DNA of 64,000 nt from Octopus vulgaris (Eukaryota): the NCBI GenBank assembly GCA_951406725.2, contig OX597822.1, positions 44,330,001 through 44,394,000 on the forward strand, read 5' to 3'. Positions 14,342-64,000 of this stretch are shown one piece after another. The notes under the pieces are model-generated. The model saw only the letters and a program-made list of their open reading frames with translations. It was not told the origin of the DNA and did no database searches. Made by a program: the position numbers and the translations under genes. Each line of letters starts with the position of its first letter. Position 1 is the stretch's first letter.

Positions 14342-17300
14342 TCTATGTTTGACTTTTGCTTTATATTTGTACAAGTTGGCTCCAAGTCTCACCCAGAGAC
14401 CTCAAGAGACAACAGGGTTGGAAGTTCATGTTGTTGTTATGCCTAGTGTGCCATATATTTGGGGGGTGGGGATGTTGTACTAATGAATGTCTAAAAAAAA
14501 GTTGTTTTTTTTTTGTTTTTTTGTTTTTTTTAAACCGAAAATTATGGTTGTTTTAAACCTTGAGGTTACATAGAGAGTATTTTGCGTAGGATATGAGCAG
14601 TTCCCATGAGCACTATCTTTTGAACTTCTGCCATTTTTGGGTTTCCTGGTATCTGAGTTAGGTAGCTATCAGCCCATTTTGCTATCATTCCCAGGGCACC
14701 TATGACAACAGGTATTGTTTTAGTCTTCAGCTTCCACATTTTACTGATTTCTATTTCAAGATCTTTATATTTGCTCAGTTTTTGGTAGGTCCTGACGAGA
14801 TACGTTTATATCGATTGGGACAGTCATATCAATGAGGAGGCATGTTCTTTGTTTGAAGTCTTTCAATATGATGTCTGGCCTATTTGCATCTATCTTCCTG
14901 TCAGTTTGAATGGTGAAGTTCCAGAGGAGTGAGATGTGGTCATTTTCAAGCACTGGGGGTGGTTTGTGTTCCCACCAGTTTTTTTCATGGGGCAAATCCA
15001 GGTTTTTACAGATTACCCAGTGAATATATTGTGCAGCTCTATCGTGCCTGTTGAGATACTCTGTAGGCGCTAGAAGACTGCACTTGGAGACCACATGGTC
15101 AATGGTTTCATTTTGTTGCTTGCATACACGACACGTTGGACTGCTTCTGATCTTTAATATGTTGGCCTGGTAGTTTCTTGTTGGTAGGCATTGATCTTGA
15201 GCTGCTATGATAAACCCCTCTGTTTCAGATTTTAAGCCAGAGGCCATTAGCCATTGATGGGTCAGGGCTTTGTCGATATCTGCATTATTCGCTCTCTTTG
15301 GGTATTTGCCATAGAGAGGTTTTTCTTGCCATTTATTATTCAGAATATCTAAGGCCGCAGTTTTGGCACGGGTTTTCATGCGCCTAGCTTTTTCTGTGCT
15401 TGTTTCTTGTATGTCTATCTCTAATTCCGAAATTGGTTGTATTCGGAATTCACTTAGATATTCCTTTGCCTGTTTTGTGACTGAGTATGATGCTTTCTTG
15501 TTTTCATGTTTTGAGACAAGTTTTAACATCCAGTCCTCAGAGTTTTTCAGGTAGGTGTCTAGGCCAATTGTAGCAATCTTCATTGTTATTGCCAGTTGCA
15601 AAAGACCACGGCCTCCCTCTTTTCTTGGCAGATAGAGTCGTTCTGTATCTGCCTTAGGGTGGTGCATTCTATGCATTGTCAACAGTTTCCTTATTTTTCT
15701 GTCGAGCTGACATATTTCAGTAATTGACCAGTTAACAATATTGAAACTGTAAGTCACGACTGGTATAGCTAATGCATTGATTGCTTCGATCCTGTTTCTT
15801 GCATTCAGCTCTGTCTTGAGTATTGCTCTCACTCTTCGATAGCATTCTCTCCTGATCCTTTCCTTCATCTCTGAATGCCTTATTCCGTTCCCTTCAATTA
15901 CCCCTAGGTACTTGTAGCTCTCCGCTGGGTCTAGTTCTTTTATGACATTCTGTTGGTCAAGGTTAACGTTAGATGTTTCTGTCATTTTTCCTTTGATAAA
16001 GGTAGCCTTTGCACATTTATCGAGGCCGAATTGCATTCTGATGTCGTCACTGAATTGTTTGACTATCGCTAGTAAGCCCTTGAGTTGTTGATCATTTTTT
16101 GCAAAAAGCTTTAAATCATCCATGTAAACGAGATGATTTATATTTTTATCAAACATTTTATACCCGTACTGCGCGTCATTGAGCAGCTTTGAGAGAGGTA
16201 TTAAGGATAAACAAAAGAGGAGTGGTGACAGTGAGTCACCCTGGAAAATGCCACACGAAATTTTTACATCACCAGCATTTAGGGATTCACTGTCACTGTT
16301 CAGAGTTAGTGTGGTTCTCCATGATCTCATACTTACAGTCAAGAAGTTTCGCAGAGTTGGTGCTATCTTATACATTTCAAGGCATTTCCTAATCCAGCTA
16401 TGTGGTAGGCTATCAAAAGCCTTTTTATAGTCTATCCAGGCTATTGATAAGTTTTTGTGTCGTTTGTGACAATCTTCTAAGATCATCTTATTGATGAGTA
16501 GTTGGTCTTTACAGCCGTAGGATCCACGTTTACATCCTTTCTGTTCATTAGGGAATATGCTGCTGTCTGTTAAAAAACTATAGGTATATTCCGTCAGGAC
16601 AGATGTTAGTGTTTTGTACATAGTTGTTAAGCAGGTTATGGGTCTATAGTTTTTTGGTTCATTTGTTTCTTCACTTTTTGGAAGCAGGAATGTTAACCCA
16701 TTAACTAGCCAAGGAGGCATCCTACTAGGGTGTTGCAAAACATCATTGTACAGTTCTGTTAGCAGTTCATGGCTCTCTGGGAAGGCATTCAGCCAGAAGT
16801 TAGGAATTTTATCCTTTCCTGGAGACTTCCATTTGCTTGACCTCCTGAGAGCAGATCTTATATCTTCTACCTTGACACCCTCCCACTTTTGCTCTTCTAA
16901 GGGGTCCAGTTCTGTAGATATTCTGTCAATCCAGGGGGCCTTTTCGTTGTGTGTTTTTTCTTCTGCCCAGATTTTATTCCAAAATCTCTGCACTTCTTCT
17001 TTTGATGGTACAGACCCTGCAGTAAACGCTGTTTTTCCTATCTTCCTGTAAAAATTCTTGGTGTTATTTTTGAACATGTTGTTGTCCTTGAAAAATCTAA
17101 CACGCTTTTCATACCTCGCTATGCGGGCAGCTTTGGCAGATACCTTTTGTTTGATGGTTTCTATGGTGGCATCAATATCAAGTATAGTTTTCATATTGTA
17201 TTTTTTCAGTAATTTTTGGGTTTTTGTAGGTTTGGTAGTCTTGTGAGCCTTAAGGTTTTTCAAATATTCAATGTCAGATCTAAATACTTTAATTTGTTGT

Positions 17301-18258
17301 TGCAGACGCTCTTGCCAAGAAGGCTTTTTGTGGGACTGTTGCCGTTTTCTAATCTTTACACCACATAGGATCGTTGAGATTTTCGCGGATGCATAGTATA
17401 GGTGGTTGAGGTTTGTGATATCAACATCATTAACTGAAATTATATCCTTAAGTGCAAGCCGGATTTTACCAATTATTTTCATGTTTTGGTTAGAGTTGCG
17501 GATTTTAGGAAGTGTATCACGCTCATCCATGCTGGTTTCTTTAATTTTCAGCCATTCAATCATGATTTGATTTTTTAGCTCATGTAGTTCTGTTGGGTCA
17601 ATATTTGTGTGACTTTCTTTATCTATTTGATGCTCATCTGTCTTAGTGTTTATGATTGGTTCAGGGCGTATTTCACTTTGCCTATCACTTATACTAACTC
17701 TTTCAATCCTCTCTTCGTTTTTATCCGCCCTGGGCTGGTCTATAATCATTTCCTCTGTATTATCTTCTCTAGCTGCAGCTTCGTTCATTTTATCCGATAT
17801 TGCTTGTCTAACCTGATCAATCTCTACTTCAGTCAGTAATTTCTTTTTTATAATGTTTCTTCTAACATTGGCAAGTTTGTTACTGTCTATGTAGGGTCTT
17901 ACTTCAGGGTGTTTCTGTCTCCAGTTTAAGTATGCTTGTACAGTGCTAGACTTATCTGTGGGGAAATATATGGCATGGTAGAAGGCCTCAAGAACTTCTT
18001 TATTATCTTCCCTAGACCATTTTTCCTTCTTTTTCTTTTGATTATTTGGTGATGAGCATGGATGGCCATCTGTTGGAATATTCCGGTTGTGGGGTTCGTC
18101 CAGCTCCTGTGTGTTGGGAAGATTTGATCCAGTAACTGATTTTTCAATCAGGATTTGGTTCAATTTTCGGGTACGTGGTCTTTTGTAATCCGCGCAATGA
18201 CCAATGCGGTTTATTGTTTGATTTGTTGACCTTGAAGCATGACGAGCATCCATTCTTA

Positions 18259-18260
<2 letters not shown>
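14342..18260 (-). mobile_element. R4/Dong-clade non-LTR retrotransposon, near full length, inserted in (TAA)n
   Basis: Single long ORF with RT and C-terminal RLE, a ~220-nt 3' UTR, and (TAA)n on both sides. Confidence 0.92.
14566..18253 (-). CDS. R4/Dong polyprotein: reverse transcriptase, CCHC knuckle and restriction-like endonuclease (1-nt frameshift near 14797)
   Basis: Motifs KSPGKD, NYRPITCL, IDYKKAFDS, GIFQGDSLSP, YMDD, YKYLG, CRVC..HVVSKC, RHD, RPD and LLIDMTVP. Removing one base near 14797 restores KYKDL..IPVVIGALG..RKILSM* with the stop at 14566. Confidence 0.92.
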
Positions 18261-18321
<61 letters not shown>

Positions 18322-18659
18322 TTCTTTGACATATGGCAACTTTAATTATATTTCATGGAAAAACTCAATACGCTAAGGAATAAGTAATATAATGCCATGG
18401 CAGTGATGCCGGAATAGGTTGAAAATGATTTAGTTTGTAAGGAAAGCCCTTCTTTACAAAATCCAATTTAGACCGATAAATCTTCAGGTATCACTTTTTC
18501 TCCGTTTATTCGCAATAATGTAAGTGATTATAAACATGTCTAATCCATGAATAACAGATGGTTGACTTTTTGTTGGCGGCTTTTGTATACAGACCCAACA
18601 TTTTGCTTTCCTCAGAATCAGTGTTAGTGGTATGAAGCACAGTACAAAGATCAGTGGGG

Positions 18660-57390: not shown

Positions 57391-57460
57391 TATATGCATG
57401 TGTACTTATATATAGCTTTCTTACAAAAGGGACTAGTACACTTAGCTTAGACTTTTGAGG

Positions 57461-57531
57461 GGACAACCAGATCGAACCATCTCAAGTGTAACTGTCCGAA
57501 ATGGTCGTAATTTCTGGTACTTGACTGATGA
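57461..57531 (+). ncRNA. Non-circularly permuted hammerhead-like RNA, copy 1
   Basis: GGACA-ACCAGA-tcga-ACCAT-C-TCAAGT-gtaac-TGTCC-GAA-ATGGT-cgtaatt-TCTGGT-ACTTGA-CTGATGA. Confidence 0.7.
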
Positions 57532-58119
57532 AAGAAAGCCAAGAATGACCCGTCTTCTTTTTCTTTGCCCGTCCGTCTAATTGTTTCTCTTGTCCGCCTT
57601 TGTGTTACCTATCTGTCCGAACGTTCTGATGCCCTCTATTCCGTTTTTGTTTCATTTATATATATACACACACACATACATATGAGTCAATTGTCTGGGA
57701 AATTATGATACGACCCATGGTAAATAATACAGCGGTGAAAGGACAATTAAATCTCGAGTGAATAGTAAATTTGTAATATATTTGAGTCTACACTCATTAC
57801 TGAGTCTCCCGTAAATGAATGGCCGGTTTTCAGTCTAGAACTTGCTTTCAAATAAGTACCATCATTTAATATTTACATATATGTACACATAGCTTTTTTA
57901 TATGATTATGCAATTATAGTTACAAATAGCGATTTACAAGCATAGAAATCGTGAAAAAACTTCGGTGGATGTTTAGACAAACAGGACGGGCAAACAGATC
58001 GATACATTTATTTCATAGAAAGATATATGTTATACATACACTTGTACACAAACGCACATGTAGAAGCATACTTAGATCGATCGATAGATAGATAGATAGA
58101 GAGATAGATAGATAGATAT

Positions 58120-59566: not shown

Positions 59567-60289
59567 TAGGTGTGTGGGTATATATGCGTGTATGTTGGTG
59601 TGTATGTAGTTTTATGGACGGGCACAATACCATACGTAGTATTGTGAAGTGGGTTCACCTACTGGTGTGATGTGTGGCTGCCGTGGTATTGTAGCTACTG
59701 TTTCACGCTAGTAGCCTCAATAGTTACTAGTCATCGGATACCGTTTGTATCACTTCGTACTGTAATATTTATACACTAACTTCTGTCATACTATCGCTTA
59801 CAGTCGTCTCTCATCTCTTCGATTCTCGACCCTCTCTTGATGACCGGCTACTGGTGTATATACAATGGCTGAACCATATCTCTATTTACCGCGAGTGGTA
59901 TACATATTCACTATAGAACACATACATACTTACGTACGTACATATATTCGTACGCTCGTACATACATACATACATACATACATACATACATACATACATA
60001 CATACATACATACATACATACATACATACATACATACATACATACATACATGCAAAAATACCTTATTGCTGACGCTGAAATTCCTATGAAGGAGCCTTGG
60101 ATCTAGGTTACAAACCGGTTCTTTATTGTCAAGAAATCGTAAAATAAACTGAATATTGACTTACATATACACATACATGTTGATGTTGAAATTCCAATGA
60201 AGAGCATTGGATCTAGATTAGAAACCGGGTCTTTCGCTATTGTCAAGAAATATTAGAATAGACTGAATAACGACATACATACATACAGA

Positions 60290-60460
60290 TGTAATGGATT
60301 CTCCCTTCGACGTATGGTCTTTTAATGTACCTGGCATTAGGTACCTACCATTCCCCAATGTCTACAATTCCCCTTGTAACTCCTCATGTGTGTCCTCAGG
60401 CCACCAAAAGCATTATGGAGACGAGCATGACATATCAAACCACTATGTGATCTAGCTAAG
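60290..60460 (-). mobile_element. Possible RTE LINE 3' end
   Basis: LICHARLHNAFGGLRTHMRS resembles the C-terminal GL..H.R motif of RTE elements. Confidence 0.35.
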
Positions 60461-60494
60461 GAATGACGATATGAAAGAGAGGCATATATATATG

Positions 60495-60530
<36 letters not shown>

Positions 60531-60556
60531 GACATATATATATATATATATGTGTC

Positions 60557-60625
<69 letters not shown>

Positions 60626-61000
60626 AATGTCACTAAAGTGACAAGGATACATAGTGGTACCAGAATTTCTAGAAATAAGAGTCAAAAACGACTCATTAGC
60701 AACAGAAAAAAAACTATATTCGTAAACTGACGAGACAATGCTCCCTACAGGTGTAGCAGATATACTCATGTCACGTGATTTCGAATTCTAATGCAGATCA
60801 TCTCAATTCACGTCAGTGGATCTCACTCTGTTTAGGGTTAAGCTCAATTCGTCTCGTCAACTTATAAGAAAACCCGTTATAAACATGTGATGTCTCAAAC
60901 ATTTTGAATATACATATAAAAGCACTTATTTCATTATTCCCGCTACAGCATGATATTGTCAAAAGTAGATAAAAAAAAGATTATTATTATTATTATTATG

Positions 61001-61036
<36 letters not shown>

Positions 61037-61345
61037 GGTTGCGCAATGGCCCAGTGGTTAGGGCAGCGGACTCGCGGTCGGAGTTCCGGTTTCGATTCCC
61101 AGAACGGGCGTTGTATGTGTTTATTGAGCGAAAACACCTAAAGCTCCACGAGGCTCCGGCAGTGGGTGATAGTGACTCCTGTTGTACTCTTTCGCCCCAA
61201 CTTTCTCTCACTCTTTCTTCCTGTTTCTTGAGTAACGCTGCAATGGACTGGCGTCCCGTCCAGCTGGGTGGAACACATACGCCATAGAAACTTGGAAACC
61301 GGGCCCATGAGCCTGGCTAGGCTAGAAAAGGGCGCATACATAAAT
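61037..61345 (+). mobile_element. tRNA(Arg)-derived SINE family C, tail type 3
   Basis: Same head as 4631; tail ends GGGCCCATGAGCC..AAAAGGGCGC. Confidence 0.8.
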
Positions 61346-61359
61346 AATTATCATTATTA

Positions 61360-61740
61360 TTGACTTTGCACAACATCTAACACTGGAGATGTACTATAAT
61401 GTCAATTGTTCACTCCAAGTGAAATATGGTAATACCTCTTGTTTTTCGAACACATTCCGGAGTATTCAGGTGGTTCCAAGCAGTTCTGTTTTCTGCAAGT
61501 GCTTCACCCTTATTGCAGCTCCTATTTGTCCCATGTACTTCTCGAGATTTTTGCTCAGTTCCCAGAGCTCCGACAATTTTTAATACTACTGCTACCTTTT
61601 CCATCGACCACAACTGCTTAACTTCGCAAGCTAACCTGTCATATCTCTCCATTTTTCTTTCCTCCTTATCGCATACCTTGTCAGCTGGGAATGCTATATC
61701 TATGATCCAGCATAGTTTGTTTTCTTTCTCAGTTAAGACT
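61360..61740 (-). mobile_element. R4/Dong RLE 3' relic
   Basis: CWIIDIAFPAD..KMERYDRLACEVKQLW..IVGALGT. Confidence 0.75.
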
Positions 61741-61750
61741 GTCTCAATTA

Positions 61751-61785
<35 letters not shown>

Positions 61786-62015
61786 ACATATGTGTGTGTG
61801 TGTGTGCGTATGTGTGTATAAGATTACCAGTGAATGGATAGAAGAAAGTGGGTAGCATTCACCACAACTGGTATGCGTTACTTATATTATTTTTCAGCAA
61901 CACTTTTGACTTGTCGACCCTATGGAATTTTAAGCGGCATGAAAGCGAATCAGACTCTTATTAACGAATAACATATGCACCTGTTTATGCTATGGAGGAA
62001 TATACATACATACAT

Positions 62016-62998
62016 AGCCGAAATTACTACGATGATCCGGTTCTTGACTGAAGACTGAGGGTTTCGAATGTCCTGTCCGTGTTTATTGTGTCGTCTTCTA
62101 AGAGTTATACGTTCTTGTCCATGTTGTAATTTTCTACATACCTTAACATATATTCCAGGCGCCCCGTACCCCCCTTAACATTTATGTGAGCACATATTCT
62201 TAATAATTGGTACGACTCTCTGTTTGTCTCTCTCTCTCTCTCATTTTTACTTGATCTGTCCCCCTCTCTCTCTTTTCTCTCTACTCATCCTCTTTTTCTC
62301 TTCTCTTTCCTCTGATTCTTTGGTCTAGTCTTCCACTACCCTCCTATTTCTTTGTCTCGCTCTGCACTCACAGGTCATTCTTCGACACCCATCCCTTCTC
62401 CTCTCTGATTCCTTCTTTCTCTCTCTTCTCTCTCTTTGTTGCGTTTGTCCCTCCTCTCTCTCTCTCCTCTCTCTTTCTCTTCCTTTGCTTCTCTTTCTTT
62501 TCTTTTCCCTCTTCTCTGTCACGTGACTGTTGGCCGAAATCTGCCTTTCAGCTTCTGACCCTCGTCTTGTTAACATCGCTGTTTTCGTCCGCCACTATAA
62601 AGGCTTTTTCCATTGCGCCAGAGAAAAAATTTGTTTGCTTGTTATCAGTCGTAAGACACTGTTGTTTTCACCGTTAATGCTTCTGTATTTCATGTTTCTG
62701 TATTCCATTATTGTTTTTTGTTTTTTTATATCTGTCCCTTTTGCTGTCCTGGTGTTCGTATGCATTCGATCCTTCTTCCAGGAAATCTACGCTTCCAGCT
62801 TAGTTTTTCTAATGCTCGTTGCTTGGTTTTTCTTGGAGGGCTGGCCGTGATCTAGTAATCTCAAGATTAATCAGCCGAAATTACTACGATGATCCGGTTC
62901 TTGACTGAAGACTGAGGGTTTCGAATGTCCTGTCCGTGTTTATTGTGTCGTCTTCTAAGAGTTATACGTTCTTGTCCATGTTGTATTTTTCTACATAC
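62016..62998 (+). mobile_element. Non-coding retrozyme-like element with 126-bp direct terminal repeats
   Basis: 62016-62141 equals 62873-62998 with about one mismatch; CT-rich interior; flanked by (CATA)n. Confidence 0.75.
62839..62911 (+). ncRNA. Non-circularly permuted hammerhead-like RNA, copy 2
   Basis: GGCTG-GCCGtGATC-TAGTAAT-C-TCAAGA-ttaat-CAGCC-GAA-ATTACTA-cgat-GATCCGGT-TCTTGA-CTGAAGA. Confidence 0.7.
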
Positions 62999-62999
62999 T

Positions 63000-63091
<92 letters not shown>

Positions 63092-63092
63092 C

Positions 63093-64000
63093 AAGCAATA
63101 AAGGGTTTAGCAACGAATTGCCTTACCACAGACCGAATTTAGAAATAGCAGTCAAAGAGTTATAGCTATTTCTTCTACTAAAAAGGGAGATCTCAGTAAA
63201 AAACACAGCAATTGGAAGGCAGACACAAACAGGTAAGAGAATGAATTGACGGCAATCTATCATACAATGTTAAGTTATCTACGGACGCACGTTTCGAAAT
63301 CAAGTTTTTAGGAACTCAAAGTGTGAATGAAAGGATTGTGTCACCAGCCCCTTCCCACCCGCGTGTAGCCAAAACAAGATGCTATGGTCATCTACTGAGA
63401 TAAGGGGCTGGTGACACAATCCTTTCATTCACACTTTGAGTTTGGTGATACTAGTTGCGGATTCTAGCTCGCTCTGATACTGAGTTGAGTTGGTGCCTTC
63501 TAGTATCTCAAAATTCAATATATAATCACTTATGATTATAGTATTCTACGCTGAAGAGAAAAGAAGTTTGGGTAACGTAGAATTATTTAATATTTAATTC
63601 TCATGCTTTCCTAAAAACTTGATTTCGAAACGTGCGTCCGTAGATAACTTAAAATTGTATGATAGATTGCCGTCAATTCATTCTCTCTTACCTGTTTGTG
63701 TCTGCCTTCCAATTGCTGTGTTTTTTACTGAGATCTCCCTTTTTAGTAGAAGAAATAGCTATAACTCTTTGACTGCTATTTCTAAATTCGGTCTGTGGTA
63801 AGGCAATTCGTTGCTAAACCCTTTATTGCTTAGTATTACTTAAATTTTCCTCGAATGAGGCTTTTACATGCCGAAGACTACTTGGTGTAATTGATAATTA
63901 TTCCAAATTAATTAATTTCACCCTTCATTATTACGGATAACCATATTTTATCTCAGTAGATGACCATAGCATCTTGTTTTGGCTACACGCGGGTGGGAAG
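63093..64000. repeat. Young hammerhead-bearing repeat with an inverted, internally deleted copy
   Basis: 63093-63314 is the reverse complement of 63608-63831; 63313-63353 of 63402-63442; 63351-63403 of 63948-64000. Confidence 0.9.
63545..63644 (+). ncRNA. Intact type I hammerhead motif
   Basis: TCTACG-CTGAAGA-GAAA..AAGTTT/AAACTT..TTTC-GAAA-CGTGCG-TC-CGTAGA; GUC cleavage triplet. Confidence 0.8.

Follow-up and report, generated by a model that had tools for sequence, protein, structure and literature searches.

What kind of element is a non-coding repeat unit of about 860 nt that carries the parts of a hammerhead ribozyme (HHR), and how does it multiply? The question arises at positions 62016-62998 of a 64,000-nt stretch of the Octopus vulgaris genome (contig OX597822.1, positions 44,330,001 to 44,394,000), here called the window, whose own numbering we use throughout. 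We consider it likely that the insertion is a young, non-autonomous, retrozyme-like element of the Naiad/Penelope-like element (PLE) type, with a unit of ~845-860 nt and an RNA that contains a predicted hammerhead of split layout. Seen in the DNA itself are the anatomy of the motif, its covariation, the copy number, a 3′ end that stays constant within (TA)n, a pile-up of 5′ ends at the predicted cut and array-private haplotypes. With somewhat less assurance we also favor a wider claim: that this is an active seventh hammerhead topology, in which a multi-helix junction takes the place of the A9-G10.1 link, and that it is the ribozyme of many animal Naiads and of their non-coding parasites, other Naiads using the non-circularly permuted type CSG.

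A repeat unit without a PLE-like reading frame

The insertion, whose family we call A, consists of the following parts, the letters S, G and C denoting the three blocks of the hammerhead core.

62016..63001, + strand: family A insertion, an 857-bp unit and a 3′ partial repeat (3′ end approximate)
62016..62141, + strand: first direct repeat, with the G and C blocks of a 5′-truncated ribozyme copy, running on to the 3′-junction position
62142..62157, + strand: internal junction, the putative start of reverse transcription ~144 nt past the cut (partly interpretation)
62216..62517, + strand: pyrimidine-rich low-complexity body, which holds most of the between-copy length variation (843-863 bp)
62873..62998, + strand: second direct repeat; from its end to 63091 the sequence is (TA)n of the target

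As an earlier note on this DNA had claimed, the two 126-bp repeats are nearly identical (one mismatch, at 62129) with a period of 857 bp, and a recount again placed the start of the first repeat 12 nt 3′ of the cut-equivalent position. The unit contains neither a PLE-like open reading frame (ORF; the longest frame free of stops spans 140 aa, the longest that opens with ATG 83 aa) nor a Naiad-type ORF with an N-terminal GIY-YIG domain and a C-terminal reverse transcriptase (RT), and its best tblastn match had an E of 0.077. Taken as a whole it shows no excess of structure over shuffled sequence (z -0.14), unlike small retrozymes, which are highly self-paired. The local flanks, described earlier as (CATA)n, are (CATA)n/(TA)n; across the family the target is (TA)n. 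Near 62142-62157 copies end and pass into (TA)n, and internal units go on with a short TA-like tract. The window copy itself begins 12 nt past the upstream position that corresponds to the cut and differs slightly from the family A 3′ end.

A hammerhead core split by a branched domain

The second repeat and the sequence before it hold these elements.

62763..62775, + strand: helix IV 5′ strand; 62763-69 pairs with 62921-27 (mean probability 0.97) and 62771-75 with 62914-18 (0.73)
62778..62836, + strand: hairpin V; 62778-85 pairs with 62829-36 (probability 0.95)
62839..62844, + strand: hammerhead stem II 5′ strand, with G10.1 at 62839, detached from CUGANGA; partner 62871-62876
62845..62866, + strand: S block, with distal stem III 5′ (62845-52), stem III (62853-59) and stem I 5′ (62861-66) strands
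62871..62897, + strand: G block, with stem II 3′, GAAA, stem III 3′ and distal stem III 3′ strands
62899..62927, + strand: stem I 3′ strand, CUGAAGA core (62905-11) and helix IV 3′ strand

Read by hand and by script, the core is complete, its blocks following in the order S (AUC, 62858-60, with the predicted cut at 62860/62861), G (GAAA, 62877-62880) and C (CUGAAGA, 62905-62911), and both stem I (6 bp) and stem III (7 bp) stand in exact register with it. The "permuted ribozyme" of the earlier note is not a simple three-block permutation, because stem II (62839-44 with 62871-76) is formed by a strand that lies upstream of the S block and not by one after CUGAAGA. The motif is larger than first described (62763-62927), and its strands come in the order helix IV 5′, hairpin V, stem II 5′, S, G, stem I 3′ with CUGANGA, helix IV 3′. 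Hairpin V and the long-range helix IV hold the strands that flank the split; the minimum-free-energy fold of 62763-62927 includes IV, V and II, and 62837-38 are able to pair with 62912-13 immediately past the core. As part of the overall reading, and with the same confidence, the step from A9 to G10.1, which hammerheads described so far make with one backbone link, would be replaced by a branched helical domain, a three- or four-way junction.

A descriptor of this layout matched twice in the window (this motif and one at ~57.4-57.5 kb), against a mean of 0.02 and a maximum of 1 in 100 dinucleotide shuffles, and so the motif is not a product of chance. Plain folding of short windows did not produce the pseudoknot, and no Rfam hammerhead model was among the 31 matches to E 10 in 60000-64000.

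Could the motif simply be an ordinary type-SGC hammerhead? Its block order is that of the published type (PMC10085705), and in the window copy an offset stem II of 4 bp could join 62912-15 to 62871-74, with two C just ahead of GAAA staying unpaired. We think this very improbable. The bases after CUGAAGA and before GAAA are both C in the window copy, which precludes the canonical pair; the offset helix has a pair probability of 0.00, is paired to 57.6% over 23 relatives, which does not exceed the value when it is slid by one column (58.7%), and includes one pair that does not form in 22 of the 23. It was rejected as not conserved.

The split layout is maintained across unlike sequences

About five sequence-distinct lineages in the genome, a decayed octopus Naiad among them, covary in the split layout. 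In 11 representatives of these lineages stems I to III all persist despite different sequences, the core bases are kept throughout (11/11, the scanner requiring the core), and the first pair of stem II is G-C in every one. A G-C pair at this place, G10.1-C11.1 in a stem II that stacks beside G12, is typical of canonical hammerheads. In canonical hammerheads A9 also stands directly before the stem II 5′ strand, whereas here the canonical pair after A9 forms in 0/11 representatives.

Two families were picked without regard to stem II. An upstream stem II 5 bp or more in length was present at 18/30 loci (0.8 expected) in one and 14/20 (3.6 expected) in the other, the misses including truncated and decayed copies; none of the 50 had a canonical stem II of even 2 bp. 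Across 23 chosen sequences, from loci with mostly intact motifs of families A, B and C, stem III was 100% paired (3/5 pairs compensated), stem I 99% (1/6) and stem II 89% (3/6), while helix IV reached 73% and hairpin V 84% in an alignment whose window row is misaligned in IV/V. The junction itself varies: judged by eye, in families F, G and the Naiad no linker separates IV, V and II, which form a four-way junction with the core, and in family A a 2-bp helix comes after A9.

Among related families in this genome, A′ gave 178 matches; family C gave 610, the descriptor passing at 18/30 loci; and family B gave 2,562 candidates, with passes at the target site in 14/30 loci. For the decayed Naiad the descriptor passed at 6/20 loci. 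One older family B copy lies in the window.

57414..57660, + strand: 5′-truncated family B copy with the same split layout and compensated stems

The 39 best other copies of this element are 85-89% identical to it. Families F, G and C3 surfaced in the unselected flanks of 272 loci. We observed them as non-coding sequences with a split hammerhead and different stem sequences (L104:2859(+), L180, L141:2209(+), L131:2404(+), L245), with GUU, GUC and AUA as their triplets. In the loci read, families B, C, F and G are non-coding in their upstream parts, and a loose genome-wide pattern for more families yielded 0/30 passing loci. Two further scanner matches, L051 (within an ORF) and L188, look like chance and were set aside. 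Among other hammerheads in the genome, ordinary type I motifs occur in other repeat families (L167, L181, L034, L039, L042), and the loci scanned held 18 matches in CGS order.

Copies are numerous, young and share one 3′ end

The earlier note's young non-autonomous retroelement is borne out as a multicopy family rather than a local duplication, with both dispersed copies and tandem arrays. A 221-bp query found 1,259 candidates genome-wide, and all 40 that were scored were 100% identical; a 3′-junction pattern gave 1,194 exact matches in the 2.8-Gb genome (control 0). Counted by eye, the first 100 junction matches comprised 69 ends in (TA)n and 31 internal junctions. Units are 843-863 bp long, arrays reach 6 junctions, and partial tandems in (TA)n, the PLE-like arrangement that had been suggested, occur across the family.

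All 16 of the 3′ ends read lie at or a few bases off one point, ~144 nt past the cut. A fixed end so far downstream is not set by the ribozyme. In 8 arrays comprising 16 units, substitution differences were zero in 8/10 within-array pairs and in 7/110 between-array pairs, and haplotypes are private to individual arrays.

5′ ends gather at the predicted cut

The 5′ ends are tied to the ribozyme. Of 100 genome-ordered family A copies, 31 start 0-15 nt past the cut, 6 of them exactly there (by eye), and among the remaining 69 only 2 start in the 24 nt before it (p 2e-6), in a set whose pattern excludes intact A′ copies and in which one row pair is a segmental duplicate. Without the 8 known A′ rows the count is 23/92 (p 1e-4). 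At A′ loci, 21/30 copies start 0-19 nt past the cut, 3 exactly at it; starts precisely at the predicted position also occur in family C (L143, L148) and the Naiad (L086). Twenty solo copies divided into 7 that start 2-19 nt past the cut, 7 that are shorter and 6 that pass it. Starts at offsets 5-19 mostly begin at A/T, which is consistent with microhomology joining to (TA)n. An impression of random 5′ ends, from 17 insertions found with a query that selected cut-spanning copies, was overturned by these counts.

Might the motif be inactive or slow, and the pile-up mark a transcription start or RT stalling in the pseudoknot? In vitro, some hammerheads of PLEs are weak (PMC4209133), cleavage here is a prediction, and the 7 shorter solo copies (50-86 bp) suggest that structure-related stalls may exist. 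We nevertheless hold this to be quite unlikely: stalling should leave ends where the fold begins on its 3′ side, yet in families A and A′, L143, L148 and L086 the predicted phosphodiester marks a sharp boundary, few ends lie just upstream of the cut, and every core base is kept across lineages.

The position of stops along the arrays bears on the template. Copies stopped at the first pass of the cut in 30/74 cases and at later passes in 1/26 (p 4e-4), the window copy, with its stop at the second pass, being of the less common kind. This favors a circular template over independently cleaved multimers, for which stop rates per pass should be equal. An active ribozyme without any circle, the arrays arising from partly cleaved long linear array transcripts or from RT template jumps, is a possibility we doubt but take seriously. 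PLEs are transcribed as multimers, and in vitro the HHR is dispensable for insertion (PMC11167929); the window copy and C1:14210819 both stop at the second pass, and a homogeneous source array would likewise yield identical units. Apart from the unequal stop rates, the array-private haplotypes and the arrays of up to 6 junctions speak against it.

Several Naiads appear to share the fold; candidates for a mobilizing enzyme

Craig et al. 2021 (PMC8557442) describe Naiads as lacking a canonical HHR and targeting (TA)n, some of them keeping "HHR_core" or "HHR_half_core" flags. In the present genome the octopus Naiad carries the split layout at its 3′ end (306 exact motif matches). Set against the earlier note's idea of an autonomous PLE with the same terminal repeat, this Naiad has the unit's fold, but no sequence similarity extends beyond it. 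The Naiad RT remnants among the matches are all broken.

Part of the 54 published Naiad ends (PMC8557442 supplement) were read by eye, without a program. The split layout fits the Amil, Aacu, Anas, Obim and Ovul ends and four more entries (one Clytia, two Morbakka, one crustacean, the names inferred from file order), and thus, on this visual comparison, appears to fit cnidarian and cephalopod Naiad consensus ends alike. By the same means, the 3′ ends of the nematode Naiads Nbra-1, -2 and -3 (File S5) and three more entries in the nematode part read as type CSG with a canonical stem II, and one entry in the spider part of the supplement may be SGC. If these fits are correct, the split topology would explain the "missing" ribozymes of Naiads.

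A search for partners used GIY-YIG queries and 12 extended loci. We noted a young PLE family (L061-L069, L071-L072; for example G000:C16:20834800-20843500) with a 781-aa RT and C-terminal GIY-YIG frame and a 479-aa upstream frame; its terminal repeat has repeated CCAAT-like boxes, and no hammerhead core was found in its 3′ region. Separately, an intact RT family ~31% identical to the Naiad RT segment, with frames of 753-782 aa (G000:C18:77003163, C3:61677160, C1:90013574, C12:16775326), is a candidate driver.

A proposed cycle, its weak points and its meaning

On the reading we prefer, transcripts would cleave themselves at 62860/61, part of the monomers remaining linear and part being closed into circles. 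A PLE RT-endonuclease acting in trans may nick (TA)n, and copying would begin inside the RNA, ~144 nt past the cut. Cleaved linear RNA would then give stubs of at most 144 bp, and on a circle the RT could cross the cut repeatedly, leaving head-to-tail arrays with variable 5′ ends.

Several points limit this account or weigh against it. Contigs of four presumed-RNA runs cover parts of the unit and show no ends or joints. Constrained folding recovered helix IV, the weakest part of the model, in only 4/11 representatives; the shuffles behind the 23-sequence covariation ignore relatedness; and families B, C3, F and G come from a scanner that demands stem II. For the old Naiad the 5′ pile-up is weak (9-10/100 vs 2, p 0.04-0.06), with none of these exactly at the cut. 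By eye, the layout agrees in part with the Bfor and Esco Naiads and disagrees with Skow-2, and no core is seen in two bivalve ends. No intact Naiad ORF was found among 105 and 154 RT matches (longest open frame 300 aa), and the intact C-terminal-endonuclease PLE of 781 aa has no sequence or motif in common with the unit. Apart from these points, metagenome contigs gave no match.

If the split hammerhead is what it appears to be, non-circularly permuted hammerheads, hitherto seen almost solely in environmental sequence, would be abundant in animal genomes, with thousands of copies in this one, and would move from environmental RNAs into animal chromosomes. The layout breaks an explicit assumption of the six-permutation hammerhead scheme, offers an answer to the published puzzle of Naiads that thrive without canonical hammerheads while some keep core fragments, and, for work on RNA structure and for engineering, is of interest as a naturally occurring scaffold whose insertion point lies right at the catalytic core. 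The 5′ and 3′ copy ends would be a record of a circular-RNA retrotransposition cycle, and rare genomic evidence on what part cleavage by the ribozyme and templates in circular form play when Penelope-type elements retrotranspose.

Other features of the window

A 1,195-aa stop-free frame at 14765-18352 (- strand) carries RT and, at its C terminus, a restriction-like nuclease motif, and resembles an R4/Dong-type non-long-terminal-repeat (non-LTR) element; a similar decayed fragment lies at 61410-61740 (- strand). A near-perfect inverted repeat (63093-63314/63608-63831; arms ~220 bp, spacer ~290 bp) resembles an inverted PLE or foldback insertion, and more inverted pieces lie at 63340-63420 and 63940-64000. 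Positions 60076-60287 form a tandem duplication with a period of 110-114 bp and ~80% identity.

Comparison with known systems

The hammerhead topology of family A is probably undescribed: no account of the split layout, or of permuted hammerheads in Naiads, was found in the literature searched, which consisted mostly of open papers, and the supplements of Eckert 2023 and of the 2026 preprint may bear on the point. Eckert et al. 2023 (PMC10085705) define the non-circularly permuted types SGC, CSG and GCS and report none in eukaryotic genomes, SGC being known from metatranscriptomes and CSG from two metagenome sequences. The split motif resembles these types in its conserved core, reverse cyclic block order, pseudoknotted stems I-III and short linker between stems I and II. 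In their scheme, however, CUGANGA is contiguous with both flanking stems, and in type SGC it leads directly into stem II, whereas here a branched domain parts the two. Measured against SGC, the family A motif has the block order S-G-C and lacks an uninterrupted block C of stem I, CUGANGA and stem II.

What defines non-LTR retrozymes is a type I hammerhead, and most of them measure 150-450 bp (PMC7229834; bioRxiv 10.64898/2026.07.22.740005), reaching 972 bp in the 2026 survey (bioRxiv 10.64898/2026.07.22.740005). Family A is like them in being non-coding, hammerhead-bearing, dispersed as well as tandem, with one ribozyme per head-to-tail repeat, and for both a circular RNA intermediate and dependence on PLEs are proposed. 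It departs from them in having no type I motif: its ribozyme is split and reverse-ordered, its unit is ~850 bp, and its copy ends bear the mark of the cut as well as of a constant internal start in (TA)n.

Among autonomous elements, internal initiation of reverse transcription has been shown for the Poseidon PLE of Anolis (PMC11167929), and initiation of this kind together with AT-rich targets would explain why the family A 3′ end lies far from the cut. Poseidon has a minimal type I HHR and an initiation site without homology to the target; in family A a short TA-like tract follows the junction. With Naiads (PMC8557442), from which it differs in having no ORF, family A shares the targeting of (TA)n, the partial tandems and the 5′ truncation.
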